Shown here: positions 2 through 62,984 of the stretch, in pieces
Position numbering within the stretch: the stretch's first letter is position 1
Layout of the letters: the number at the start of each line of letters is the position of its first letter
Source: an uncultured Candidatus Saccharibacteria bacterium
GTDB lineage: Bacteria > Patescibacteriota > Saccharimonadia > Saccharimonadales > SZUA-47
Assembly: GCA_964419675.1 (NCBI GenBank)
Contig: CAYQPN010000004.1
Span: 11,001-75,000, forward strand
DNA length: 64,000 nucleotides
Direction of reading: 5' to 3'
Position numbers and translations under genes: made by a program
Notes under the pieces: generated by a model
Told to the model about the DNA's origin: nothing
What the model saw: the letters and a program-made list of their open reading frames with translations, nothing else
The model's database searches: none

Positions 2-649
2 TTTGTTGCAGGTTTGAGAGCGCTTTTGCGCCAAGACCCAAACATTATTATGGTAGGAGAAATTCGTGACGCCGAGACAGCAGGTCTTGGTGTTCAGGCA
101 GCACTTACAGGTCACCTCGTGTTCTCGACCCTACACACCAACAATGCCGCCACTTGCCTGCCTCGTTTACTGGATATGAATATTGAACCGTTCCTGATTG
201 CCAGTGTTGTACGGGTTGTTATTGGCCAGCGTCTGGTGCGCAGACTTGTTCCTGAAGATTGTCTAGAATATGTACCCACTGATGCAGAACGCAAAGAGAT
301 TGAACGCGTATTTAACATAAAGACAAAGGCTGACTGGGATAATCTTCTTGCACTTGTAACTCAGGCTCAAGAGTCGTTTGATAAACCAAAGTCCACAAAA
401 CTAACATTTTGGCGCCCCAAACCTGATTTACCAGAAGAAAAAACTGGATATAAGGGACGGATGGGAATATACGAAGTACTCAAAAATTCAACTGATATCC
501 AAAATTTGATAGTTAGTAACGCAACCAGCGAAGAACTTCAGGCAAGAGCCGTAGCAAATGGTATGCTTACCATGCAACTTGATGGGCTAATAAAAGCCTT
601 GATGGGCATGACAACTATAGAAGAAATACTTAGGGTAACAAGAGAATAA
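2..649 (+). CDS. pilB: Type IV pilus assembly ATPase, GspE/PilB family (C-terminal part; 5' end outside window)
   Basis: The frame is open to the window edge, and the ORF-track start at 14 is an internal TTG. It carries the IIMVGEIRD and [12 protein letters not shown] motifs of GspE-type ATPases. The stop lies 1 nt before pilC. Confidence 0.9.
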
Positions 650-650
650 T

Positions 651-1862
651 ATGAGATTTGCATATACTGCACTAGATGAGGCTGGAAAGAAAAAAACTGG
701 GTTTGTTGAGGCCAACGATCAAGCCGGCGCCCGAAACGCACTTATACGGCTGAGCTTGAAACCTGTAACAATCAAAAAGGCCGGCAGCTCTGGTGGGTTC
801 ATGGAGTTTCTCTCTAAGGGTGGAAAAGTTAAGCCAAAAGACTTGGTTATATTCACTCGCCAGTTGGCTACCATGATAAACGCTGGTGTCCCACTAGTTC
901 GAAGCCTTGCAACCTTAAATGCCCAAACAGAAAATCCGGCATTTAAAAAAATACTAACTCAGGTCAGCAAAGATGTTGAAGGTGGTATGGCTTTTGCCGA
1001 TGCCTTGGAAAAACATAAGTCTTCGTTTAACTCGATTTTTATAAATATGATTAGAGCAGGAGAAGCCGGCGGTATCTTAGACGAAATCTTAAAGAAATTA
1101 GCTGTCCAGCAAGAAAAAGATGCCGCCATACGCGCCAAGTTCAAGGGAGCAATGGTCTATCCTACAGTTCTTATTGGCATCACAGTTATAGTTTTTATTG
1201 CCTTGATGACCCTTGTAGTTCCAAAAGTTGGCACTATTATTGCTGATTTATCCACAGACGGAGAACTGCCACAAATGACCAAAGTTATGTTAGGTATAAG
1301 TGATTTCTTAATTGGATTTTGGTATATACACCTTAGCGTGGTTGTAGGTGGTAGTTTTCTGTTACGCCGATACATTAAAACAGACAAAGGCCGAAATAAG
1401 AAAGATGGCTTGATGCTTAAACTACCTGCTGTTAAAGTGCTGGTTACTAAGATGGCTGTTGCTAGATTCGCACGCATATTCGCATCTCTCATGGGTGCAG
1501 GAGTAAGCGTAATAGAATCAATTGAAATAACAGCCAAAGCAATTGGCAACTCAGTTATTGAAAAAGAGCTGATGGATGCAGCCAAAGAAGTATCTAATGG
1601 AGAACAGTTCAGCACTCCACTGTCCAGAAGCAAGATATTCCCGCCCATCGTGTCTCAAATGATGGCAATCGGTGAAGAAACAGGTCAAACAGATGATGTG
1701 CTTGTTAAGGTCGCAGACTTTTATGAGGAAGAGGTGGATGCAGCAGTAGAAGGCATGAGTTCAATCTTGGAGCCAATTTTAATTGTTGTCATGGGTGGAA
1801 TGGTTGGAGTTATTGCTGCTAGTGTTATCGGGCCTATTAGCGGTCTTGCCAAGCAAATTTAA
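651..1862 (+). CDS. pilC: Type IV pilus inner-membrane platform protein PilC (GspF family)
   Basis: This 403-aa protein has the duplicated GspF-domain architecture, including FTRQLATMINAGVPL and MMAIGEETGQ motifs and TM segments. It sits between pilB and the pilin gene. Confidence 0.9.
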   Translation: MRFAYTALDEAGKKKTGFVEANDQAGARNALIRLSLKPVTIKKAGSSGGFMEFLSKGGKVKPKDLVIFTRQLATMINAGVPLVRSLATLNAQTENPAFKKILTQVSKDVEGGMAFADALEKHKSSFNSIFINMIRAGEAGGILDEILKKLAVQQEKDAAIRAKFKGAMVYPTVLIGITVIVFIALMTLVVPKVGTIIADLSTDGELPQMTKVMLGISDFLIGFWYIHLSVVVGGSFLLRRYIKTDKGRNKKDGLMLKLPAVKVLVTKMAVARFARIFASLMGAGVSVIESIEITAKAIGNSVIEKELMDAAKEVSNGEQFSTPLSRSKIFPPIVSQMMAIGEETGQTDDVLVKVADFYEEEVDAAVEGMSSILEPILIVVMGGMVGVIAASVIGPISGLAKQI

Positions 1863-9323: not shown

Positions 9324-10061
9324 TTGCAAAGAATCAGTGAGTTTAAAAAGTATTTTCTATACACTATGATAGGTTGCTTAATTGCTGGGTCTTTAGTTGC
9401 TGTTACTTCTGTAATGATTGGTTCTTTCAATGAAACATCTTCTAGAATCGTCGGTACTCTAGTAATAATTGTGGCCCACGCTTTAGTGAGTTTCTTCATA
9501 CTCCCCGACAACAAAGACGACAATTTCTTAAACAGATTCAAGATGTTTTCTGACATTCTATTTTTCCTACTTATTGCTAGTTTGTTTACCGCCATTTTGG
9601 CCACCTGGCAAGCATTCAGCACTGATGTTACTGGGCAGCTCTATGGAATAATAGGAACTATAGGTGTAAGTGCGCTGCAAATTAATGCCTACAGGCTTTT
9701 GCAGATAAAAAACAAGGCTCTCAGCATGGCAACAAATGTTGGTTCGGCACTTGCTGTTCTCTTTGGCTCATTGTTAACCGTACTTATACTAGGCTACAGT
9801 TCATGGCTTGAGGGGTCTTTAGAGATATTCAATAGATTGCTTGCTTCGGTAGGCATCCTAGATAGCGCTACTTTAGTTATTGCTGCAGTACTTTATAAAC
9901 TATATCTTCAGAAACACCCGAATGAAAAGAACATCTTAAAATTTGGTGGTAATACAAGCGTATTAAGGATTATTGGAATTGCTGTTCTGGCGCTTATAGC
10001 ATTGAACGTCCTTGTCTCGCTGTTATTCTTTCTAATGTCCAGCGTGAATAACAGCTTCTAG
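9324..10061 (+). CDS. Polytopic membrane protein, unknown function
   Basis: It has about 7 hydrophobic segments. The TTG start lies 7 nt after an AAGGAG Shine-Dalgarno, and an alternative ATG is at 9366. The antisense ORF 9275-9622 is discounted. Confidence 0.6.
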   Translation: MQRISEFKKYFLYTMIGCLIAGSLVAVTSVMIGSFNETSSRIVGTLVIIVAHALVSFFILPDNKDDNFLNRFKMFSDILFFLLIASLFTAILATWQAFSTDVTGQLYGIIGTIGVSALQINAYRLLQIKNKALSMATNVGSALAVLFGSLLTVLILGYSSWLEGSLEIFNRLLASVGILDSATLVIAAVLYKLYLQKHPNEKNILKFGGNTSVLRIIGIAVLALIALNVLVSLLFFLMSSVNNSF

Positions 10062-10125
10062 AAGGAAAAACTCGAGCCTTCCTTATCTAATATATTCTTC
10101 TCAGTAGAAGCAAATCATATAAAAA

Positions 10126-10154: not shown

Positions 10155-10309
10155 TGGAGGGCCCGATGAGACTCGGTCACCTCTGGCGACCCCTAAACTA
10201 CATTTTTCAAAACAAGTTTTGAAGAGTAGGTTTCCTTGCGAAATGCCACCGGCATTTCTCACTCATGACACCGAATGTGTCGTGACTTGAATCTCATCTG
10301 GAGTCGACC
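10155..10309 (-). repeat. Family A element, copy 1: 5'-truncated tRNA-Lys copy with an 85-nt three-hairpin module in its T-loop
   Basis: Segment 10155-10175 equals the tRNA-Lys 3' 21 nt (21/21). Segment 10261-10272 equals the tRNA variable loop plus 5' T-stem (12/12). The module at 10176-10260 is shared with the copies at 31837, 38975 and 39228. Confidence 0.75.
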
Positions 10310-24048: not shown

Positions 24049-24080
24049 TAAACTTATTGTACCAGTAAAATATCTGTAAG

Positions 24081-24131
24081 TTAGTCACGTTTTAGTAAAA
24101 CGGTGAAGGCCTCGGCCGGTAGGTCTACTTT
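24081..24131 (-). repeat. Displaced duplicate of the lepA 3' end (last 16 codons plus stop)
   Basis: It matches 24218-24268 at 50 of 51 positions. The single difference is a synonymous Thr codon change (ACC versus ACA). Confidence 0.9.
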
Positions 24132-24217
24132 ATCAGAGTATAAGACACCCCTTCGGGGTTTCTCATCACGCAGGCCACGGAATAAATCCGATGGTCTGGC
24201 TGCTCTTCCCGAAGCAG
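24132..24217 (-). repeat. Family B element, minus orientation, between the two lepA 3'-end copies
   Basis: The minus strand reads GGGAAGAGCAGCCAGACCATCGGATTTATTCCGTGGCCTGCGTGATGAGAAACCCCGAAGGGGTGTC. Confidence 0.75.
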
Positions 24218-25999
24218 TTAGTCACGTTTTAGTAAAACTGTGAAGGCCTCGGCCGGTAGGTCTACTTTGCCGAACTTTTTAAGGCGTTCTTTACCTTTTT
24301 TCTGCTTGGCTAGAACTTTCTTTTTTCTAGATACATCACCACCGTATAACCCAGTTGTTACGTCTTTTCTGAAGGCGCTAATGTCCTCTCGTGCAATAAA
24401 TTTACCGCCCAATGCGGCCTGAACCGCCACTTGAAAGTTTTGACGCGGTATAACGTCTTTCAGCTTCTTGACAACGTCTCGTCCAACGCTGTTGGCTTCA
24501 CTTCTATGAACCATAATACTTAGAGCATCAACTCTGTCGCCCGCAACGTAAAAATCAAGCTTTACCAAATCTTCTACTCTATAGTTATCTAGCTCGTAAT
24601 TAAAACTGCCATATCCGCTTGTTAGACTTTTTAATTGGTCATAAAAATCTGTTAACAGGTTGGCAAGCGGTGCCTCAAAAGTAACAAGCGCCAATTGTGC
24701 ATCTACATAGCCTAGATTTTTTTGTAAACCTCGTTTACTAACAATCAACTGAATAATAGCCCCAACATATTCTTTGGGACAAACCACTTCACCTTTAATC
24801 CATGGTTCACGAATCTCGGTAATTTTACTTACGTCCGGCAAACTACTGGCTGATTTAACATCAATTTCTTCTCCGCTACTCAGTAAAACTTCATAGTCCG
24901 TGCTGGGATTTGTTACTACTAAATCAAGGTTATACTCTCGCTCTAAACGCTCTTTAATAATGTCCATGTGGAGCAACCCTAAGAAACCAATGCGAATCCC
25001 GAAGCCTAAAACTGGTGAATTTTCTGGCTCGTATTGCAAAGCAGAATCACTCAAACTTAATCTGTCAATCGCCTCTTTAAGGGCGATGTAATTTTCGTTA
25101 CTATCTGGGAAAAACCCGGCATACACAAAAGGCTTAACGATTTTATAGCCGGCAAGAGCTTCAACAGCAGGAGCGTTGGTTAGAGTTACGGTGTCACCAA
25201 CTCGAGCTTCGCGGGTGCTTTTCAAGTTAGTTACAATATATCCAATCTCCCCTGTTTTTAAGTCTGTATTGGCCTTCATATCTGGGCGTAATGCACCCAC
25301 TTCTAGCGCAAGTCCATTAGTGTTGGAGCTAATCATATGAATTCCGGCGCCTTTTTGGACATGACCGTCAATGATACGCACGTAGAGAATAACTCCACGG
25401 TAATCGTCATAGTAGCTATCAAAAATTAGACCTCTGGTTGGCTTGTCACTAGTACCTTTTGGCTCTGGTACAAGTGCAATTACACTGTCCAGAACTGATT
25501 CAATACCAATCCCGGTTTTTGCACTTATCAGCAATATATCTTCTTTTTTGCATCCAAGCAGGGAAATAACTTCTGAACTTACACGCTCTACGTCAGCGGC
25601 CGGCAAATCGATTTTATTTAGAACAGGAATAATCGTTAAGTCGGCTGCAATTGCTAGATAAACATTGGCTAGAGTCTGCGCCTGAATGCCTTGAGAAGCA
25701 TCAACAACTAAAATTGCGCCCTCGCAAGCCTCAAGGCTTCGCGATACTTCATAGCTGAAATCCACATGACCTGGAGTATCAATCAAGTTCAGCTCGTAGC
25801 CTTTATAGTCCATTCTTACCGGCGCTAGTTTAATGGTAATTCCCTTTTCGCGCTCCAAATCCATTTTGTCTAGCATCTGTGCTTTCATATCGCGCTTTTG
25901 CACAGTTCCGGTAATTTCCAATAGCCGGTCAGCCAAAGTAGACTTACCATGATCGATATGCGCAATAATGCAGAAATTTCTAATTTTTTCTTGACTCAT
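24218..25999 (-). CDS. lepA: Translation elongation factor 4 (LepA)
   Basis: It has the GTPase motifs IIAHIDHGKST and DTPGHVDF and the LepA-specific C-terminal domain. Confidence 0.97.
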   Translation of the reverse strand: MSQEKIRNFCIIAHIDHGKSTLADRLLEITGTVQKRDMKAQMLDKMDLEREKGITIKLAPVRMDYKGYELNLIDTPGHVDFSYEVSRSLEACEGAILVVDASQGIQAQTLANVYLAIAADLTIIPVLNKIDLPAADVERVSSEVISLLGCKKEDILLISAKTGIGIESVLDSVIALVPEPKGTSDKPTRGLIFDSYYDDYRGVILYVRIIDGHVQKGAGIHMISSNTNGLALEVGALRPDMKANTDLKTGEIGYIVTNLKSTREARVGDTVTLTNAPAVEALAGYKIVKPFVYAGFFPDSNENYIALKEAIDRLSLSDSALQYEPENSPVLGFGIRIGFLGLLHMDIIKERLEREYNLDLVVTNPSTDYEVLLSSGEEIDVKSASSLPDVSKITEIREPWIKGEVVCPKEYVGAIIQLIVSKRGLQKNLGYVDAQLALVTFEAPLANLLTDFYDQLKSLTSGYGSFNYELDNYRVEDLVKLDFYVAGDRVDALSIMVHRSEANSVGRDVVKKLKDVIPRQNFQVAVQAALGGKFIAREDISAFRKDVTTGLYGGDVSRKKKVLAKQKKGKERLKKFGKVDLPAEAFTVLLKRD

Positions 26000-31825: not shown

Positions 31826-31962
31826 GGTGAGATTTGCCCACGTTCCGCGGGCCCAGAATTTTCATGCGTCGAACAAGTTCGACCCTGAAAAGTTCTCTTG
31901 CGAAATGCCACTGGCATTTCTCACTCGCGACTTTTCGGCGTTCAAATTTACTACTAGTTACC
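31825..31962 (-). repeat. Family A element, copy 2 (downstream of tRNA-Met; 3' tRNA-like end truncated at a CDS stop)
   Basis: The module is at 31837-31922. ACTCGCGAC (31923-31931) equals the tRNA 5' T-stem region at 32019-32027. GTGAGATTTG (31827-31836) equals tRNA positions 32008-32017. Confidence 0.7.
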
Positions 31963-31996: not shown

Positions 31997-32073
31997 TGGT
32001 AGCGGGAGTGAGATTTGAACTCGCGACCTCAGGCTTATGAGTCCTGCGCTCTAACCAACTGAGCTATCCCGCC
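31997..32073 (-). tRNA. tRNA-Met (anticodon CAU, elongator-like), CCA encoded
   Basis: It forms a cloverleaf with the CTCATAA anticodon loop, and its D-arm is identical to typical elongator Met. It has a G1-U72 pair and single mismatches in the anticodon and T stems. A hairpin terminator lies at 31963-31988. Confidence 0.8.
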
Positions 32074-38821: not shown

Positions 38822-38896
38822 CGCGGGATGGAGCAGCGGCAGCTCGCTTGGCTCATAACCAAGAGGTCCCAGGTTCGAGTCCTGGTCCCGCTACCA
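38822..38896 (+). tRNA. Initiator tRNA-fMet (anticodon CAU), CCA encoded
   Basis: CGCGGGATGGAGCAGC...CTCATAA closely parallels E. coli tRNA-fMet. It has the C1-U72 mismatch characteristic of bacterial initiators. A hairpin terminator lies at 38905-38930. Confidence 0.9.
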
Positions 38897-39206: not shown

Positions 39207-39326
39207 TGGCGAATTACCATCTTTCCTGGCCACATTCTGCGGCCCCGAAACTTCATGACAGAAAACTAGTTTTCTTCAGAAGATTTCCTTGCAATGAGCC
39301 ACTGGCTCATTTCACCCGCTACCAAG
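39207..39326 (-). repeat. Family A module, copy 4 (inverted relative to copy 3), flanked by a third partial copy of the tRNA-fMet 3' end
   Basis: The module at 39228-39314 aligns over its full length with the other copies and has covarying stems. CCCGCTACCAAG (39315-39326) equals tRNA-fMet 38887-38898. Confidence 0.65.
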
Positions 39327-43720: not shown

Positions 43721-43768
43721 ATCTCTATAATTTTACACTAAAAAACCGACATTAGGTCGGTTCTTAAA

Positions 43769-43896
43769 TGGTGGGGGTACCTGGACTTGTCATAATTTGC
43801 TCGCTCGAGAGCGCAAGCGCATCTCGCTCAGCCAAGCACAGAAAACTCATCCGCCTTGGGCGGATTCGACCCAAGGGTTCAAATCTTCTACAACCT
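43769..43896 (-). repeat. Divergent family A-like element downstream of tRNA-Ile2, ending in a duplicate of the tRNA 3' 21 nt
   Basis: Segment 43769-43789 equals 43934-43954 (21/21, C56 to CCA). The interior has a GAGA-GCG-CTTG-CGC-TCTC hairpin and a T-arm-like CCTTGGG-TCGAATCCG-CCCAAGG. Its own terminator is at 43739-43762. Confidence 0.6.
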
Positions 43897-43933
43897 CAAA
43901 TAAAAACAAACTCCAGTGGAGCTTGTTTTTATT

Positions 43934-44628
43934 TGGTGGGGGTACCTGGACTTGAACCAGGGACCAATCGGTTATGCGTACCACTACAGCTTTTGCTGCC
44001 TCTTTCGTGTTTGTGGTCTGGACTGTCTCTTTATCCGCGTATTTGCGGATACTTGCCATACAGTCTCTACACCTTACCAGCTTTTTTATAAACTGGGCTT
44101 GGCTCGGGATTACCACTCAGCCAGTTGGCGGATAGAGGCTTCCCCGAATTTGACAAGATATACTTACTGGTTACCCATGTAAGCAGCCCTTTAACTTTTT
44201 GACTTATCTATAGTATACTTCGGTTATGAAGAACAGGTCTAACTGTGCCGTGTGTAATAAAATTCTATCCGGCAAACAAACATTGTTCTGCTCCGTGAAA
44301 TGTAAAAATACACAGCACCAATCATACCCTGCTCAAAAAAAGCGCGGATTAAATCGAAAACTCTATTTTATAAGAGAGTTAGGAGGAAAATGTTCTATCT
44401 GCGGATATGCAAAAAATATTTCTGCACTGGCATTTCACCACATACACGGTAAAGAATTTCAACTAGATGTTCGTGCACTATCAAACCGTAAAATTGAACC
44501 TATACTTGAAGAGGTCGCAAAATGTAAGTTATTGTGCAATAACTGCCACGCTGAAATTCATAACCCAAATCTAGACTTAGCCAAATTGTTAATTGAGCCG
44601 ACTGCTCTAACCACTGAGCTATACCCCC
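43934..44628 (-). tRNA. tRNA-Ile2-like (anticodon CAU) interrupted by a group I intron in the anticodon loop
   Basis: Exon 1 (44628-44596) reads GGGGGTATAGCTCAGTGGTTAGAGCAGTCGGCT. Exon 2 (43976-43934) reads CATAACCGATTGGTCCCTGGTTCAAGTCCAGGTACCCCCACCA. Joined, they form a perfect cloverleaf closely resembling E. coli tRNA-Ile2. Confidence 0.88.
43977..44595 (-). mobile_element. Group I intron (IC3-like core) in the tRNA anticodon loop
   Basis: The minus strand contains GTCAAATTCGGGGAAGCC, CCCGAGCCAAGCCC and AAGGTGTAGAGACTGTATGGCA. These match P3/P7-region strings of the Azoarcus tRNA-Ile intron as I recall it. The 5' exon ends in U and the intron ends in G. Confidence 0.8.
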
Positions 44629-54946: not shown

Positions 54947-55213
54947 TCAAACTGCTACCGAATCGATCTCTCTTGCCATAACCAGGTCTTTGTCTGTAAT
55001 TCTATGTTCAGAGTGTGTTGTTAGCCAAATCCTGACAAAGCCCCAGCCTAGATTTATGTCGGGATGATGTTGATGTTTTTCTGCCAATTCTCCAACTTTA
55101 TTCACAAAAACAAGAGCATCAGTAAAATCCTTAAATACAAAATCCTTTCGAAGAGCCTTCTGTTTTCTTCCATCAGGAAAGTAGTCGACTTCTTCCCATT
55201 TTTTACCAACCAT
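54947..55213 (-). CDS. Pterin-4-alpha-carbinolamine dehydratase (PCD/DCoH family)
   Basis: It has the F.DF..A..F...V...AE...HHPD motif. The ORF-track start at 55240 is TTG, so the ATG at 55213 is preferred. Confidence 0.85.
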   Translation of the reverse strand: MVGKKWEEVDYFPDGRKQKALRKDFVFKDFTDALVFVNKVGELAEKHQHHPDINLGWGFVRIWLTTHSEHRITDKDLVMAREIDSVAV

Positions 55214-55667
55214 ATTCGCTGTAATATTTCCCCTCTGCAATTTTTAACAAAGCTTCTTTTTGTGGAGGAACAATATTTTTAGGTAAGTTTTTTAAATCAA
55301 GCCAGTCTAGACTTTCACTTTTTTTCTTTTCGGCATTATATGGCTCACCTTGCCATTTTTTAGCCTCAAAATACACATCTACCCACTCCATTATTTCTGA
55401 ATCATCTTCTCCATGCCTATGTGCGATATGGACAAAATCTAAATCTGCTATTTCAATATCAACACCAGCCTCCTCTTTTGCTTCTCTAGCAGCGCCCAAT
55501 GAGTATGGTTCGCCGTATTCGACTTTCCCCGCTGGCAAACCATAATAACCGTCCATCCACCCGGTATTTTTTCGACGAACCATAGCAATTTTGTCTTCTC
55601 TCCGCAAAATCACAAAACAAGCTATATAGGGACGGGCGGAATCATATTTCTCTGAATGTTTTTTCAT
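55203..55667 (-). CDS. NUDIX hydrolase
   Basis: It has a Nudix box, G.PAGKVEYGE....AAREAKEEAG. Confidence 0.9.
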   Translation of the reverse strand: MKKHSEKYDSARPYIACFVILRREDKIAMVRRKNTGWMDGYYGLPAGKVEYGEPYSLGAAREAKEEAGVDIEIADLDFVHIAHRHGEDDSEIMEWVDVYFEAKKWQGEPYNAEKKKSESLDWLDLKNLPKNIVPPQKEALLKIAEGKYYSEYGW

Positions 55668-55996
55668 CTATTGTCGCCTGCACCTTTTTGGACACCTCGC
55701 GCTTTTCGACTTGCAAGTTTTTCTACGTTTAATTTCATAACTTCATCAAACGACAAGCCCAGGCTATGAGCCATTAACGCTATATACCAGACTACGTCGC
55801 CAAGCTCTTTTTTGATTTCTGCTTTATCATCATCAGAGATAACACCATCTTTATAAGCAACGATTTTTTTCCACTTTTCTAAAACTTCACCAGCTTCACC
55901 TGAAATACCCATAGCCCAGATTGTTTTATCCATCAATGGGTCTTTATTAAATATAGCAGTGGTCAAAGCTTTTTCTTGATACTCATCAAAAGTCAT
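55664..55996 (-). CDS. MazG-like nucleotide pyrophosphohydrolase
   Basis: It has the small all-helical MazG pattern (GISGEAGEV...ELGDVVWY). Confidence 0.8.
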   Translation of the reverse strand: MTFDEYQEKALTTAIFNKDPLMDKTIWAMGISGEAGEVLEKWKKIVAYKDGVISDDDKAEIKKELGDVVWYIALMAHSLGLSFDEVMKLNVEKLASRKARGVQKGAGDNR

Positions 55997-56025
55997 TTTT
56001 TATTATTCCCTCAACTTAATAATAC

Positions 56026-56065
56026 TATACACATATTATACGCTATAGCGTATAATATGTGTATA
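56026..56065. repeat. Perfect 40-bp palindrome (copy 2 of 4), overlapping the divergent promoter region
   Basis: It reads TATACACATATTATACGCTA|TAGCGTATAATATGTGTATA. TATAAT at 56051-56056 lies 33 nt upstream of the 56090 ATG, and a mirrored TATAAT on the minus strand faces the mazG-like operon. Confidence 0.95.
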
Positions 56066-56089
56066 TGAAGAGTAGGAGCTAATTATCTT

Positions 56090-56686
56090 ATGAAAAACGT
56101 CAATAAACTAAAGCTAAGAAAAGTTAAATCTGTAACCAACCCTTTAATGAAGGGCTTACTAAAAACCGCTCTCGCAACCGGACTTATCGGCGTAGTTATA
56201 ACTGCTCCAAATTCATTGCAAGCGTTGGATTTACTAGTAAAGAAATTGGACAAAACAAAAAAGCGCGGTAAAAGATTTAACGAGTATGCCCGGCGCAGTG
56301 GCTATTTTGAAGTAGAGTCCTGCGGTAAAGACCGATACGCGATAAAGCTCAGTTCTAAAGGGCAAAAAGCCGCTCAAAACGTGTTATTTGATGATTTTAC
56401 GCTGACAAAAGCTCAAAAATGGGATGGTAGTTGGCACATTTTAATGTTCGATATTGGGGAAAAGCACAAATATTTAAGAGATATGTTAAGCAACAAAGTT
56501 ACTGATCTTGGAATGCTACCTCTACAAAACAGCGTCTACGTTTATCCTTACGCATTCGACGATTTTATTGAGAATTTGCATATTGTCTACCCTCAAGCAA
56601 TGCAGTATGTTATGTCTGCCAGGGCAACACAAATTGACGGCGAGAAACAGCTGATAGAAAAATTTAGGCTTGCCAAAGTAATCTAA
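56090..56686 (+). CDS. PaaX-like / Cas2-fold (VapD-like) domain protein with N-terminal hydrophobic segment
   Basis: WDGSWHILMFDIGEKHKYLRDMLSNKVTDLGMLPLQNSVYVYPY matches the W.G.W.h..FDI.E..R..R..L...L...G...LQ.SV.V.P motif of PaaX middle and Cas2-like domains. Confidence 0.6.
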   Translation: MKNVNKLKLRKVKSVTNPLMKGLLKTALATGLIGVVITAPNSLQALDLLVKKLDKTKKRGKRFNEYARRSGYFEVESCGKDRYAIKLSSKGQKAAQNVLFDDFTLTKAQKWDGSWHILMFDIGEKHKYLRDMLSNKVTDLGMLPLQNSVYVYPYAFDDFIENLHIVYPQAMQYVMSARATQIDGEKQLIEKFRLAKVI

Positions 56687-56710
56687 AGCTCTTTCTTAAC
56701 GATCCACTAA

Positions 56711-56746
56711 TACACATATTATACGCTATAGCGTATAATATGTGTA
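56711..56746. repeat. Perfect 36-bp palindrome (copy 3 of 4) between convergent genes
   Basis: It reads TACACATATTATACGCTA|TAGCGTATAATATGTGTA, starting 25 nt after the stop of 56090-56686. Confidence 0.95.
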
Positions 56747-56777
56747 GCATAGTAAAATCCTATAAAATTCGGTCTAT

Positions 56778-57578
56778 CTATAGCCCTAGTGCACTATCCG
56801 ACAAAGCTGCATCGCTAAAATCTGTGGTGTCATCCAATGAATTTATGGCTTCATCCATTGATTGAGACGAGCTGTCGATTTCAGATACAGTTGCAGGTTC
56901 AACTAACTTTTTCTCGGCGACTGTTGATTGTGAATTACTAGAGCTACTTTTTTCTGATGCGTTATCTTGGGCTGACAAATAAACATAAGTTGCTGCACCG
57001 GCTAATATTAAAGCGACGACTACGGTCACTACTAATGCTAGCTTCTTATTGTTTCTGTTTTCATGAGGTACAGGAGATGAATCCGAGTTGGTATTCTGAT
57101 CTGTAGCCATAGCCATATTAGGAGAACTCTGAACAGTCTGAGAAGGCTCTGCAGTCGCAGATTCTACAGAATCTGATGGCATGCTTGCCACGGTTGATTG
57201 GTCGGATGTAGCTGACTTTTCTGACTCCACAGTAGGACTATTACCACTTACTTGCTCTGTAGAATTTTCAGCAAGTTTAGCCTCTTCAGTTGGCTCAGCT
57301 ACCATGGATTTAACTTCCTCTTCCATCACACGTACTTCTTCATCTGTAGACTTTGCTGTCTCATTTACAGAGTCTTCCGTTTTTTCCGCGGCTATGATAT
57401 CTTCAGCTTTTTCAACGTCTCCTGGCTTAACTGATTCTGTATTTTCAACTGCTGGAGGGGGCATAGCGAGGTCTACTGTCGCTTGGCTTTGATCTGGAGC
57501 TGAAGTCACAGGAACCGTGCTATCGTCATCACTCTTTACTACTATGGTTTGGGGTGTTTTTTGCTCTTCTTTGTCCAT
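56778..57578 (-). CDS. Acidic S/T/E-rich membrane-anchored protein, unknown function
   Basis: This 266-aa protein has a low-complexity acidic N-terminal part and a single TM near residue 190. Confidence 0.5.
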   Translation of the reverse strand: MDKEEQKTPQTIVVKSDDDSTVPVTSAPDQSQATVDLAMPPPAVENTESVKPGDVEKAEDIIAAEKTEDSVNETAKSTDEEVRVMEEEVKSMVAEPTEEAKLAENSTEQVSGNSPTVESEKSATSDQSTVASMPSDSVESATAEPSQTVQSSPNMAMATDQNTNSDSSPVPHENRNNKKLALVVTVVVALILAGAATYVYLSAQDNASEKSSSSNSQSTVAEKKLVEPATVSEIDSSSQSMDEAINSLDDTTDFSDAALSDSALGL

Positions 57579-60389: not shown

Positions 60390-61703
60390 CTACGGTGTTA
60401 GACGATTGATATCACGCGGGAATAGCGTGGCTTCTTTAACATTGTTCAGACCTATGATGCGCTGAGTAAGACGCTCTAACCCAAGCCCAAAGCCTCCGTG
60501 TGGTGGTAAGCCGTGCTTGAATGCTAGTAGGTAGTTCTTGAACCCTGGATCATCTGGGTCAGCACCTATCATATCTTTCAATTGCTTTACTAGAACTTCG
60601 TATCTATGTTCACGCATCGGACAGGTCATAATTTCAATACCGCGGAAGAGAAAATCGCTTCGTTCAGCAAGCTCAGGGTTGGAATCCATTCGCTTGTGGT
60701 AAAACTTCATGTTGCTGGCCGGCCACTCTGTAACAAATATGGCTTCTGTGCCTAGATTTTTCTTGGCGTATTCGCAAATCCATTTTTCTTCAGCTGGTGT
60801 TAAATCTTTCCTGTCTTCAACTTTTTCTTTTGTGTTCTTTTCAAATAATTCATGAACTTCTGCCAATGTAATTGAAACTGCATGTTCGCTAAGTAGTGGT
60901 TTCTGAGTATTCCAACGCTTTAGTTCCGGCTCGTAGCTTTCCCAGACCCTGTCTACTACGTGTCTCAACAATTGATGCGCAAACTCTCTAAGTTCTTCAA
61001 AGGTTATAAACCCTAGTTCTGCATCAATTGTGATGTATTCACTCATGTGACGAGTAGTTGCGCTTAATTCTGCTCTGTATGTAGGGTTTGTTTCAAAAAC
61101 TCTTTCAAATACCCCGACCATCATTTGCTTATAGAACTGGGCGCTTTGGGCAAGAGTAGCTTCTTTGCCAAAATAATCTAACTTGAATACTTCCGCGCCA
61201 CCCTCTGTCGCTTCAGCTAAAAGTTTTGGGGTGTTCATCTCTGTAAAACCACTTTCTATGAAGTACTCTCTGACTGCTTCTAAAACCTTTGCTTGAATCT
61301 TGAATATTGCAGTTTCTTGTAAGTTTCTAAGTCCTATAACACGGTTATCTAGTAGTGTGTCTAAATGTTCAGATTTATGTGAAAGTGGTTTGTCGATTTC
61401 TACCGGCGATTCATCAGTTACTGGTACTAAAACGTTAATTTCTGGTTCGTGTAGTTCGGCGCCACCTGGTGCTCTTTCTTCTTCTAATACTCTTCCTGTA
61501 ATTTCTAAAACTGTGCCGGTTTGCATACCACGCAACTTTTCTACTTCTTTTTTATCTTCAATTAAAACTTGTGTAAGTCCGCTTCTATCGCGCACATTTA
61601 TAAATGTTAGACCGCCAAGAAGTCTTTTTTTGTGTAACCAACCTTTGATTGATACTTGTTTTCCAATATGTTTTTGTACATCGCTTGCTAGTGTTCGTTC
61701 CAT
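60390..61703 (-). CDS. aspS: Aspartyl-tRNA synthetase, archaeal/eukaryal type (class IIb)
   Basis: It has an OB-fold N-terminus, the LDTLLDNRVIGLRN motif, and class II motifs including GLPPHGGFGLGLERL. The ATG at 61703, with a GAGGA Shine-Dalgarno, is preferred over the TTG at 61781. Confidence 0.9.
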   Translation of the reverse strand: MERTLASDVQKHIGKQVSIKGWLHKKRLLGGLTFINVRDRSGLTQVLIEDKKEVEKLRGMQTGTVLEITGRVLEEERAPGGAELHEPEINVLVPVTDESPVEIDKPLSHKSEHLDTLLDNRVIGLRNLQETAIFKIQAKVLEAVREYFIESGFTEMNTPKLLAEATEGGAEVFKLDYFGKEATLAQSAQFYKQMMVGVFERVFETNPTYRAELSATTRHMSEYITIDAELGFITFEELREFAHQLLRHVVDRVWESYEPELKRWNTQKPLLSEHAVSITLAEVHELFEKNTKEKVEDRKDLTPAEEKWICEYAKKNLGTEAIFVTEWPASNMKFYHKRMDSNPELAERSDFLFRGIEIMTCPMREHRYEVLVKQLKDMIGADPDDPGFKNYLLAFKHGLPPHGGFGLGLERLTQRIIGLNNVKEATLFPRDINRLTP

Positions 61704-61902
61704 GATTCTATCCTCAAATTTAGTTTGTAATTGTTCGGCTTTTTCGACGGGTCTTTTGCCAAGTAAGAAGTAGCTCGCCAAAAACTACCGGCGGACCCGA
61801 CTATTCATATTATTTTGCACGACAATTGTTTTCACTCCTGTTATTGTACCATCAACCGGATATAACTAGTGCAAATTTCAGCATTCTAGCATAAGAACTA
61901 CC

Positions 61903-61938
61903 TACACATATTATACGCTATAGCGTATAATATGTGTA
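61903..61938. repeat. Perfect 36-bp palindrome (copy 4 of 4) between the CNNM-family gene stop and aspS
   Basis: It reads TACACATATTATACGCTA|TAGCGTATAATATGTGTA. Confidence 0.95.
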
Positions 61939-61946
61939 TTAAAGAA

Positions 61947-62984
61947 TTAATTGCTGGTTTTTAACTGTCTGTCCTTAGAGTCCGCTTCAGCTAAACTTTT
62001 TGCTACAGCTCGCAAATCTCTGTGTTGATCAAACTCATCAACAATTTGCTTGCCTAAAATTTCTTCAACTACATCCTCTAGGCTGACCACGCCAACGAAT
62101 TCTTCAAATGTATTTACGACGATTAGTAAATGGTGATTGGTGCGCAAGAAAACCCGCAACGCGAAATCAAGGGGCTTTTCTTCATGTACAAAATAGACAT
62201 CTTTCCGCATAAAGTCCCTCACACTACCCCTGATATCAGTTCCCACTAAATCATGGATGTACAATGTCCCCACAAACTCCTGTCCATTTTTGTTTGCCAG
62301 CACCGGGAAACGAGAATACCCTGATTTGTGTAACTCATCAAGTAAAATTGGCCCTATCAAATCGTCTACAAGCACAGACTTTACTACTCTTCGAGGAGTC
62401 ATAATTTCTCGGACTAGTTTGTCACCAAAACTTAGTGCGTGCCGGATAATATTTACCTCTTGAGTACTTATATCGCTTTCTTTTGAAAGCTCACGACCTT
62501 CAAAAATTTTATAAAGTTCTTCTTTGCTATATATTGTTGGGTGTTCACGGCCAAGCCATTTGTCCAGAGTTCGTCCCATAGGTTTAGCTATTGGCGACAA
62601 CAACAATATAAGTTTCTTCAATACTGGTGCTATCCTAGCTGTTACCTCTAAGCTGTGTTTACCAAGGTAAGCCATTGGTAGAATTTCGCCAAAAATTACT
62701 ACTATTACTGTGGTAATAATGACTGCTAATAACCCGTTAGTTCGAGTGTCCAGGATTGCGGTAATGCCGGCATTTACAGTAACGTTGCCAATTAGCAGCG
62801 TAACCATTAACTGGTTTCCTAGTGATCGTATCGGGTAAACAACTTTAGCAGACTTGCTACCTAGCTGAGCCTTACGTTTAAGCTCATAATGGTTAAGCGA
62901 CAATATGCCGATAGTAAGACCCGAAAACAGGGCTGAACAGAGCAAAAGAAACACGATTGCTAAGAAGAAAATAATGTCACCCAT
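61947..62984 (-). CDS. CNNM/DUF21 transmembrane domain plus CBS-pair protein (hemolysin C/CorB-like)
   Basis: It has an N-terminal 4-TM DUF21 domain followed by two CBS motifs (REIMTPR...). Confidence 0.85.
   Translation of the reverse strand: MGDIIFFLAIVFLLLCSALFSGLTIGILSLNHYELKRKAQLGSKSAKVVYPIRSLGNQLMVTLLIGNVTVNAGITAILDTRTNGLLAVIITTVIVVIFGEILPMAYLGKHSLEVTARIAPVLKKLILLLSPIAKPMGRTLDKWLGREHPTIYSKEELYKIFEGRELSKESDISTQEVNIIRHALSFGDKLVREIMTPRRVVKSVLVDDLIGPILLDELHKSGYSRFPVLANKNGQEFVGTLYIHDLVGTDIRGSVRDFMRKDVYFVHEEKPLDFALRVFLRTNHHLLIVVNTFEEFVGVVSLEDVVEEILGKQIVDEFDQHRDLRAVAKSLAEADSKDRQLKTSN

Follow-up and report, generated by a model that had tools for sequence, protein, structure and literature searches.

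A 64,000-nt stretch of the genome of an uncultured Candidatus Saccharibacteria bacterium (contig CAYQPN010000004.1 of GenBank assembly GCA_964419675.1, positions 11,001 to 75,000; hereafter the window) contains a small gene for a protein with PaaX- and Cas2-like motifs, enclosed by two long perfect palindromes, and the question raised by this locus is what such palindromes do on both sides of one gene. The reading favored here, with a probability of roughly 60%, is that the gene may encode a truncated PaaX-type autorepressor, designated mini-PaaX, whose operator would coincide with its promoter, that a second operator would close the cassette, and that a few extra sites would form a small regulon. 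This reading was adopted because of the fold and homology of the protein, the operator geometry of the palindromes, their linkage to and co-variation with the gene family, the promoter-like layout of the upstream copy, the attachment of the element to the gene, and its low copy number.

The upstream element (40 bp; arms TATACACATATTATACGCTA and TAGCGTATAATATGTGTATA) and the downstream element (36 bp; arms TACACATATTATACGCTA and TAGCGTATAATATGTGTA, identical to the inner 36 bp of the upstream element) were both 100% self-complementary, and were separated from the gene by 24 nt ahead of its ATG and by 24 nt past its stop codon, respectively (Table 1). In dinucleotide-preserving shuffles of the window, 0 matches to the 34-bp palindrome core were expected, and the two perfect palindromes with TATAAT in their arms that the original prediction had placed around this open reading frame (ORF) were thus borne out. 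The same prediction had counted two copies. Both do flank the gene, but they are not the only ones: the 34-bp core was found four times in the 64-kb window, the additional copies being located at 11217-11250 (one mismatch) and 61904-61937, both in short intergenic gaps between tandem minus-strand genes. The 11-nt half-site TAGCGTATAAT was essentially confined to the four window palindromes, and a general promoter motif was therefore ruled out.

The only Pfam match of the enclosed protein was PF20803 (PaaX_M, a Cas2-like central domain) at residues 109-185, with 56.4 bits against a cut-off of 24 bits. An AlphaFold2 model prepared with 60 homologues as input (mean pLDDT, 86) predicted, after a basic N-terminal tail, helix 18-29, strand 35-38, helix 42-53, a recognition helix (57-70) and a β-hairpin wing (73-87), that is, the H-S-H-H-S-S topology (H, helix; S, strand) of a canonical winged helix over residues 18-87, followed by a linker helix (89-101) and a Cas2-like ferredoxin fold (115-194). 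The N-terminus had been described as hydrophobic and lacking an obvious winged helix. This description was not upheld, because in the AlphaFold2 model and in the alignment with the N-terminus of PaaX the hydrophobic stretch corresponds to helix 1 and strand 1 of the predicted winged helix, and an N-terminal membrane anchor was rejected for the same reason. The top solved structure in the Foldseek search was E. coli PaaX (8a39; E=2e-5, 192 columns, spanning both domains), whereas Cas2 proteins matched the C-terminal half, with probabilities of 0.85-0.99 to several Cas2 structures, and MarR-type regulators matched the N-terminal half. A sequence profile searched against the PDB likewise detected PaaX (E=0.003) and, at positions 43-96, MarR-type winged helices. 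The PaaX-type motif noticed originally was confirmed by the PaaX_M match. The NCBIfam scores were below threshold for both TIGR02277 (PaaX; 22 bits vs 264.55) and TIGR01573 (Cas2; 13.8 bits vs 24.5). No Pfam match to PaaX_C was obtained for the protein, which ends at residue 198, and judged from its sequence it is a mini-PaaX without the C-terminal effector domain of PaaX.

The family comprised 1522 clusters (50% identity) at E≤1e-10, nearly all of approximately 190 aa. Its invariant or near-invariant residues were P40, W111, D112, W115, F120, D121, R130, G141, Q146, S148 and P153, those within the Cas2-like domain that do not vary at all being D121, R130 and S148, and the conserved columns appear to be essentially the Cas2 signature FDI..E...R...L..LG...Q.SV. 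One family member was present in the window. None was found among 2.9 million viral contigs, by which a phage-borne element was ruled out.

A search for the same arrangement of gene and palindrome in other genomes of the candidate phyla radiation (CPR), proposed in the original prediction as a check, was successful. With one genome per species, a scan for the 22-bp core gave 12 copies at 11 loci in eight metagenome-assembled genomes (MAGs) of Patescibacteria (Saccharimonadales, Paceibacterota, Sungiibacteriota and Parcubacteria), with one to three exact-core copies per MAG. A homologue of 30-35% identity adjoined the palindrome in 4 of the 11 core loci and was located between two copies in one of them (L005; loci are referred to by L numbers), and the close homologues (57-65% identity; L012, L013 and L014-16) were all bracketed by two copies. 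In addition, 80 metagenome loci with distant homologues (26-41% identity) were fetched by a search built on an alignment of 11 sequences, and elements were located with a detector anchored on the central hexamer, using genes from the same loci as controls. An element was present at one or more ends of the gene in 81 of 88 loci with homologues in other Patescibacteria and at both ends in 57 of 88; among the controls, it was present at 18 of 942 gene ends and at both ends of 1 of 471 genes. The density of long palindromes was 1.58 per kb up to a distance of 150 nt from the ends of the gene, as against 0.039 per kb elsewhere (a 40-fold difference), and a repeat common to the upstream and downstream flanks was found in 61 of 77 loci and in 13 of 471 controls. 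The sequence of the element varied widely among lineages, while the two copies at one gene matched each other.

Solo copies numbered six in 394 kb of related loci (approximately 1 per 65 kb), with usually one family gene per locus. A genome-wide repeat of the REP type, one of the possibilities raised originally, was ruled out by this low copy number and by the position of most copies at the gene. REP/RAYT systems (REPtrons) are alike in that a gene is found between palindromic repeats, solo copies are intergenic, and repeat and protein co-vary among lineages. However, REPs number tens to hundreds per genome, mini-PaaX is not an HUH/Y1 enzyme (an HUH motif was not among the conserved columns of the family), and the present element carries the predicted promoter of the gene.

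The 124 neighbouring genes fell into 129 Pfam families with no recurrent partner. The gene before an upstream copy was co-directional in 20 cases and divergent in 16, and the gene after a downstream copy was co-directional in 24 cases and convergent in 20; the placement of the element thus ignores the orientation of the neighbours. Because of this independence and the diversity of neighbouring families, the element is considered to belong to the mini-PaaX gene and not to its neighbours.

Two loci showed additional copies of the gene or the element. In L043 (1000-2093), three elements were arranged in a row (1000-1043, 1410-1453 and 2048-2093), with a tRNA-Leu gene (1177-1259, minus strand) between the first and second and the mini-PaaX gene between the second and third; a stretch of approximately 150 nt on the right-hand side of the first and the third element was likewise duplicated. 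In L045, the contig carried a second family member (14227-14859) at a distance of 6 kb from the first, flanked by a distinct imperfect repeat of its own, TATGTAATT.TTA.GCCTACGCCT.A..ATTTGCATAT, from which it follows that paralogues each carry their own type of element.

Read outward from the dyad, the consensus half-site of the family was T-A/C-G-C-G, T-A-t-a-a-T (offsets 6-11) and n-n-G-T-G-T-A-T-G, with CTATAG, CGATCG and CGGTCG/CGACCG as variants of the central hexamer. In this consensus, TAnnnT at offsets 6-11 corresponds to a -10 box, and the A following a pyrimidine at offset 18 corresponds to the expected start-site position. In the window, the predicted rightward promoter consists of a -35-like TACACA (56028-56033), a TATAAT -10 box (56051-56056, plus strand) and a predicted +1 at A56063, and its mirror image toward mazG has the -35 hexamer at 56063-56058 and TATAAT at 56040-56035 on the minus strand. 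In each of the flanking copies, TACACA-17-TATAAT (10/12) was detected by the consensus scan in the rightward and in the leftward orientation, in agreement with the original proposal that the upstream copy could supply the -10 box for the gene and also for the divergent operon. We infer that the upstream element serves as an operator and, at the same time, as a compact bidirectional promoter. Across the family, the fit to the -10 box was best in the arm of the upstream copy directed toward the gene (mean 4.63/6, 31% perfect TATAAT; 4.04-4.12 and 7-12% in the other three arms).

In at least 12 loci, the start codon coincided exactly with the predicted +1; among these are the orthologues L012 and L013, in which the ATG of the gene occupies element offsets 18-20, and leaderless mRNAs are thus implied. 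The window gene differs in having a 27-nt leader with a GGAG Shine-Dalgarno sequence (56076-56079), and the position of the leaderless start codon of the orthologues is taken by a short upstream ORF (Table 1). As for annotation, the deposited call P0008 of L013 (231 aa) begins 33 codons early (10001-10099) and crosses the upstream palindrome; its true start, judged from the family alignment and the element position, is 10100, and a similar miscall was noted among the ORF calls of L043.

These promoter features also bear on the idea that the protein and its palindromes form a chromosome-organising pair like ParB-parS or MatP-matS, in which a few dispersed sites are marked to serve segregation or the structure of the nucleoid and not the control of transcription. 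The palindromes are indeed dispersed at low copy number with copies at the gene of the presumed binder, they are placed without regard to the orientation of the neighbours, the protein lacks an effector domain, and the family is widespread in reduced genomes. The element, however, overlaps the -10 box and start site of its own gene, and the retention of promoter features in the gene-facing arm argues for transcription control; moreover, no ParA-like or SMC partner was found among the 124 neighbours, and the nearest relatives of the protein are repressors. A chromosome-organising role is regarded as very unlikely.

Within the element, symmetry peaked at offsets 2-4 and 12-18 and was lower over the -10 region, and where asymmetric variants had diverged in their inner arms, they still kept the centre and the outer inverted repeat. 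The skeleton of the element is therefore taken to be two outer hexamers approximately 26 bp apart plus the central hexamer, as in ATACAC-N26-GTGTAT of the window and TGTCAG-N26-CTGACA of L023. The E. coli PaaX operator is TGATTC(N27)GAATCA, and PaaX, a dimer, shuts down its own promoter through steric hindrance (PMC9493321). The layout of the present element is similar, with two inverted hexamers at about this distance (~27 bp in PaaX) overlapping a promoter, and would suit binding by the mini-PaaX protein. PaaX (PDB 8a39 and 3l09), which in E. coli and Pseudomonas represses the paa genes and responds to phenylacetyl-CoA, has the winged helix and PaaX_M in common with mini-PaaX. It differs in its length (316 aa in E. 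coli, 8a39, vs 198 aa), in its effector domain and in its association with paa genes, which were not near the mini-PaaX gene; conversely, the Cas2-type Asp and Arg are kept only in mini-PaaX, and its putative operator has a central hexamer and an embedded -10 box and is found on both sides of the gene.

Which part of the element might be read by which part of the protein was considered from pairs of loci. The proteins of L020 and L024 were 89% identical, and their elements had different inner cores and a common outer GTGTATG; conversely, the inner core TAGCGTATAAT was identical in the window, L005, L006 and L007, where the outer blocks differed and the proteins were approximately 30% identical. 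Because the outer block tracks the protein lineage while the inner core may stay the same, this pattern suggests that the variable winged helix recognises the outer block and that features conserved throughout the family recognise the centre. Mutual information between protein columns and operator bases was dominated by noise at 56 sequences. The idea in the original prediction of an operator in an autoregulated cassette is favored by the family-wide bracketing, by the -10 box and start site within the element and by its PaaX-like geometry.

In the CCTATAGG subfamily, TATAAT was almost invariant in upstream copies and degenerate in downstream copies, and the centre and outer repeat were kept in both. 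The downstream copy is therefore conserved as a site and not as a promoter. A role as promoter of the next gene was ruled out as a general case, since a convergent gene lies opposite 20 of the 44 downstream copies and the -10 box of downstream copies is degenerate. The expectation that the copy lying between convergent genes is a binding site rather than a promoter was thus supported, nearly half of the downstream copies being in that situation. We infer that the downstream element is a second operator, which may act as a roadblock, an insulator or a loop anchor.

Both copies could instead function through their structure, as bidirectional hairpin terminators or insulators or as cruciform-dependent promoters, with no reading of the sequence by the protein and only an indirect link to the gene. 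Stable hairpins were predicted by single-strand folding of the window elements (-13 to -16 kcal/mol, z -6 to -8), with DNA hairpin energies of -16.1 kcal/mol (z=-7.9) for the upstream and -14.9 kcal/mol for the downstream element. Covariation was strong: offsets 4-19 were variable (1.1-1.75 bits), and were complementary in 88-100% of copies against 32-58% expected. In addition, many copies are located at the 3' ends of genes, including convergent pairs, and in a terminator scan of 55600-57000 a single copy, the upstream element read on the minus strand, passed as terminator-like. The stems, however, are AT-rich, and no T-run follows the downstream copy or either solo copy (three of the four window copies), at variance with the GC-rich stem and T-run of an intrinsic terminator. 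Among the mismatches, GT outnumbered AC in one class (11 to 4) but not in the other (9 to 18); the lack of a consistent excess of G:T wobble argues against a strand-specific RNA stem, and such an RNA hairpin was rejected. The asymmetric variants, in which the inner stem is broken and the centre and outer repeat are kept, fit protein contacts better than a stem, and generic terminators would not be expected to be enriched 40-fold at, or to co-vary with, one gene family. An Rfam search of the elements gave no family match, only sub-threshold hairpin-like miRNA scores, by which a known RNA family was ruled out. A purely structural role is hence considered very improbable.

In the mechanism proposed for the favored autorepressor, a mini-PaaX dimer would bind the ~40-bp palindrome with one winged helix on each outer repeat, approximately 15 bp to each side of the dyad, and the central hexamer would be contacted by the dimer body or by the basic tails. 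The upstream element would be the promoter of the gene, with the -10 box 6-11 nt and the start 18 nt from the dyad and the -35-like hexamer in the opposite arm. Since operator and promoter would be one and the same element, its occupation would block RNA polymerase and result in negative autoregulation, and in the window the divergent mazG-nudix-PCD operon would be repressed together with the gene. The downstream copy would bind the same protein and act as a roadblock or insulator against transcription entering or leaving the cassette, or as an anchor of a repression loop, and the few solo copies, two of them in the window, would form the small regulon.

Several observations weigh against this autorepressor scheme. 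A second site after the stop codon is not obviously needed by a plain repressor and yet is nearly universal. The Cas2-type Asp (of FDIPE) and Arg130 are invariant in the mini-PaaX family and replaced in the aligned E. coli PaaX (SEGLD), which leaves room for an enzymatic activity. The free variation of offsets 4-19 with retained symmetry is not explained by a homodimer footprint alone: within single loci, 34 columns differed between the two copies with each copy still self-complementary (48 columns were asymmetric), and this 34-column pattern needs either frequent arm-to-arm conversion, through template switching or inter-copy recombination, or a function as a hairpin or cruciform. Template switching at quasi-palindromes is established in E. 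coli. Furthermore, the orientation of the cassette was flipped between orthologous flanks (window and L012 vs L013 and L014; between L012 and L013 the flanking MS channel was 65% and MazG 61% identical), so that recombination has certainly occurred. Finally, 19 locus pairs of the CCTATAGG subfamily, whose proteins are 74-91% identical, had nothing in common in 2.5 kb on either side, and homology began and ended sharply at the outer edges of the two elements.

The last of these findings are those expected of a recombinogenic or mobile cassette, in which the palindromes would be recombination or processing sites, cleavage, inversion, excision or insertion would be guided or carried out by mini-PaaX, possibly by means of the Cas2-like domain, and solo copies would be empty sites or scars, in an architecture resembling REPtrons or dif modules. 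Besides the inversion, the unrelated contexts with sharp boundaries and the invariant Asp and Arg, such a cassette would account for the asymmetric elements found as direct repeats in the flanks of many loci, for the concerted evolution of all four arms, for the unrelated neighbours across lineages, and for a crossover-core-like centre that is either symmetric or contains a GT/AC dinucleotide, flipped between copies in 5 of 12 loci. Xer/dif modules are similar in having inverted arms round a 6-bp symmetric or asymmetric centre, in being bounded by two sites and in showing inversion; they differ in that the cargo of the present cassette is always the same gene, the arms are 18-20 bp and no recombinase is linked. 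No transposase or recombinase domain was detected in mini-PaaX by Pfam, PaaX_M being the only match, and its nearest solved structure is a repressor; the invariant Asp-x-x-Glu could be a mere helix-capping box. Target-site duplications were not seen by eye at the cassette edges of the CCTATAGG subfamily. Copy number is low with usually one gene per locus, the context is stable in Saccharimonadia and in a second subfamily, which keeps synteny at a like level of identity, and the family is absent from the viral contigs searched. Inversion and concerted evolution could also result from ordinary homologous recombination or template switching at identical palindromes of 36-48 bp. A recombinogenic or mobile cassette, the latter already named as an alternative in the original prediction, is the main rival of the autorepressor and is judged unlikely. 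A specific form, in which the Cas2-fold protein acts enzymatically on the flanking palindromes by nicking or resolving hairpins or cruciforms, with inversion, excision, relocation and arm identity as consequences, is considered quite improbable; if true, the Cas2/PaaX scaffold would have yielded a functional counterpart of REP/RAYT or dif modules, and Cas2, palindromic repeats and DNA rearrangement might be connected in evolution.

Two further known systems resemble the cassette in part. Cas2/VapD proteins appear to have in common with the C-terminal domain of mini-PaaX a Cas2-like ferredoxin fold and signature, as predicted for the latter, and an association with palindromic repeats; they differ in that in mini-PaaX the domain is joined to a winged helix, falls short of the TIGR01573 cut-off, and has no Cas1 or CRISPR array nearby (no CRISPR repeat-spacer array was found in the window, and Cas1 was not among the most frequent families of the 124 neighbouring genes). 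In phage lambda, the repressor gene cI lies between OL and OR and is thus flanked by its own operator-promoters, which permits looping and insulation. The lambda operators are tripartite and belong to a prophage, whereas the mini-PaaX cassette is chromosomal, with a single 40-bp palindrome per side at a distance of approximately 650 bp.

PaaX-type repressors and long palindromic operators are already known. In the full-text literature, no paper was found that links PaaX-like proteins to these bacteria or describes bracketing palindromes. The compact effector-less family, found widely in Patescibacteria, the almost universal enclosure of its genes by putative operator-promoter palindromes that co-evolve with them, and the evidence for inversion and relocation of the cassette all appear to be undescribed. 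Gene regulation in the CPR is almost unexplored, and the genomes have very few transcription factors. Since each family member has a readable putative cognate site, operators and small regulons would be predictable for individual genomes, the build of promoters in uncultured lineages, leaderless starts included, could be deduced, and protein-DNA specificity would be open to study over hundreds of natural protein-operator pairs. The module, as a compact, portable and presumably self-repressing bidirectional promoter cassette, is also a possible genetic tool; if the recombinogenic alternative were true, a new DNA-rearranging function of the Cas2 fold would be at hand.

Table 1. Positions of the mini-PaaX gene, the palindromic elements and adjacent features in the window
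Feature	Position	Strand	Remarks
Mini-PaaX gene	56090..56686	+	198 aa; Pfam PaaX_M (PF20803), E=3e-15
Upstream element	56026..56065	.	Perfect 40-bp palindrome; dyad between 56045 and 56046
Downstream element	56711..56746	.	Perfect 36-bp copy; between the stops of the mini-PaaX gene and the convergent gene 56778-57578(-)
5-codon upstream ORF	56065..56082	+	ATG AAG AGT AGG AGC TAA; within the 27-nt leader, includes GGAG
Solo element	11218..11249	.	32 bp, perfect; dyad 84 nt upstream of membrane-protein gene 10670-11149(-)
Solo element	61903..61938	.	36 bp, perfect; upstream of class II Asp/Asn/Lys-type tRNA synthetase gene 60390-61781(-)
Divergent operon	54947..55996	-	MazG (55664-55996), NUDIX (55203-55667), pterin-4a-carbinolamine dehydratase (PCD; 54947-55240); Pfam

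The leftward half of the upstream element probably drives the MazG-NUDIX-PCD operon and mediates its co-repression, as suggested by the mirror promoter. Within Saccharimonadia (L012, L013 and L014), this operon and an MS channel gene border the cassette. A conserved functional partner gene was not found across lineages; adjacency of MazG and NUDIX was confined to Saccharimonadia, apart from NUDIX in L007 and L010. NUDIX was the only neighbour family recurring across lineages, being located directly beside the cassette in Parcubacteria as well (L007, 5384-5872, minus strand; L010, 1178-1690, plus strand; in the window on the minus strand). No paa families were found near mini-PaaX among the 25 most frequent of the 129 neighbouring Pfam families. 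The two solo elements of the window, of which the first is directly past the stop of a DUF192 gene (11275-11766, minus strand) and the second 9 nt past the stop of a CNNM/CBS transporter gene (61947-62984, minus strand), are candidate regulon sites on the basis of their sequence and position. In L008, a solo palindrome of the window type (346-367) was located 66 nt upstream of a fragment (3-290, minus strand) and 121 nt upstream of ndk; the product of the fragment, judged by eye from its translation in this single case, resembles the N-terminus of a XerC/D-type integrase.

Palindromes of two other long perfect families were noticed in CPR contigs away from the mini-PaaX gene, TCCGCC..AGGCGGATCCGCCT..GGCGGA and ...CCATTCGTACGAATGG..., at L037 4382-4411, L070 459-494, L074 475-504 and L087 8671-8700, and at L054 14491-14532 and L076 9516-9551 and 9882-9919; they may be sites for other factors. 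In the window, a conserved, hairpin-containing repeat of approximately 40 nt (GTTTCCTTGCGAAATGCCACCGGCATTTCTCAC...) was present at 10230-10269, 31892-31931 and 39283-39322, within a few hundred bases of tRNA-Lys (10346-10422), tRNA-Met (31997-32073) and tRNA-Met (38822-38896), and could be a tRNA-associated promoter or terminator motif. Two 53-nt copies with 98% identity (AGTTAGTCACGTTTTAGTAAAAC...) were located at 24079-24131 and 24216-24268, 137 nt apart. At 44004-44211 on the minus strand, Rfam gave a match to a group I catalytic intron (RF00028; 76 bits, E=1e-17) with no tRNA or rRNA gene called around it, and a 30-nt repeat (43760-43789 and 43925-43954) was located directly beside it.

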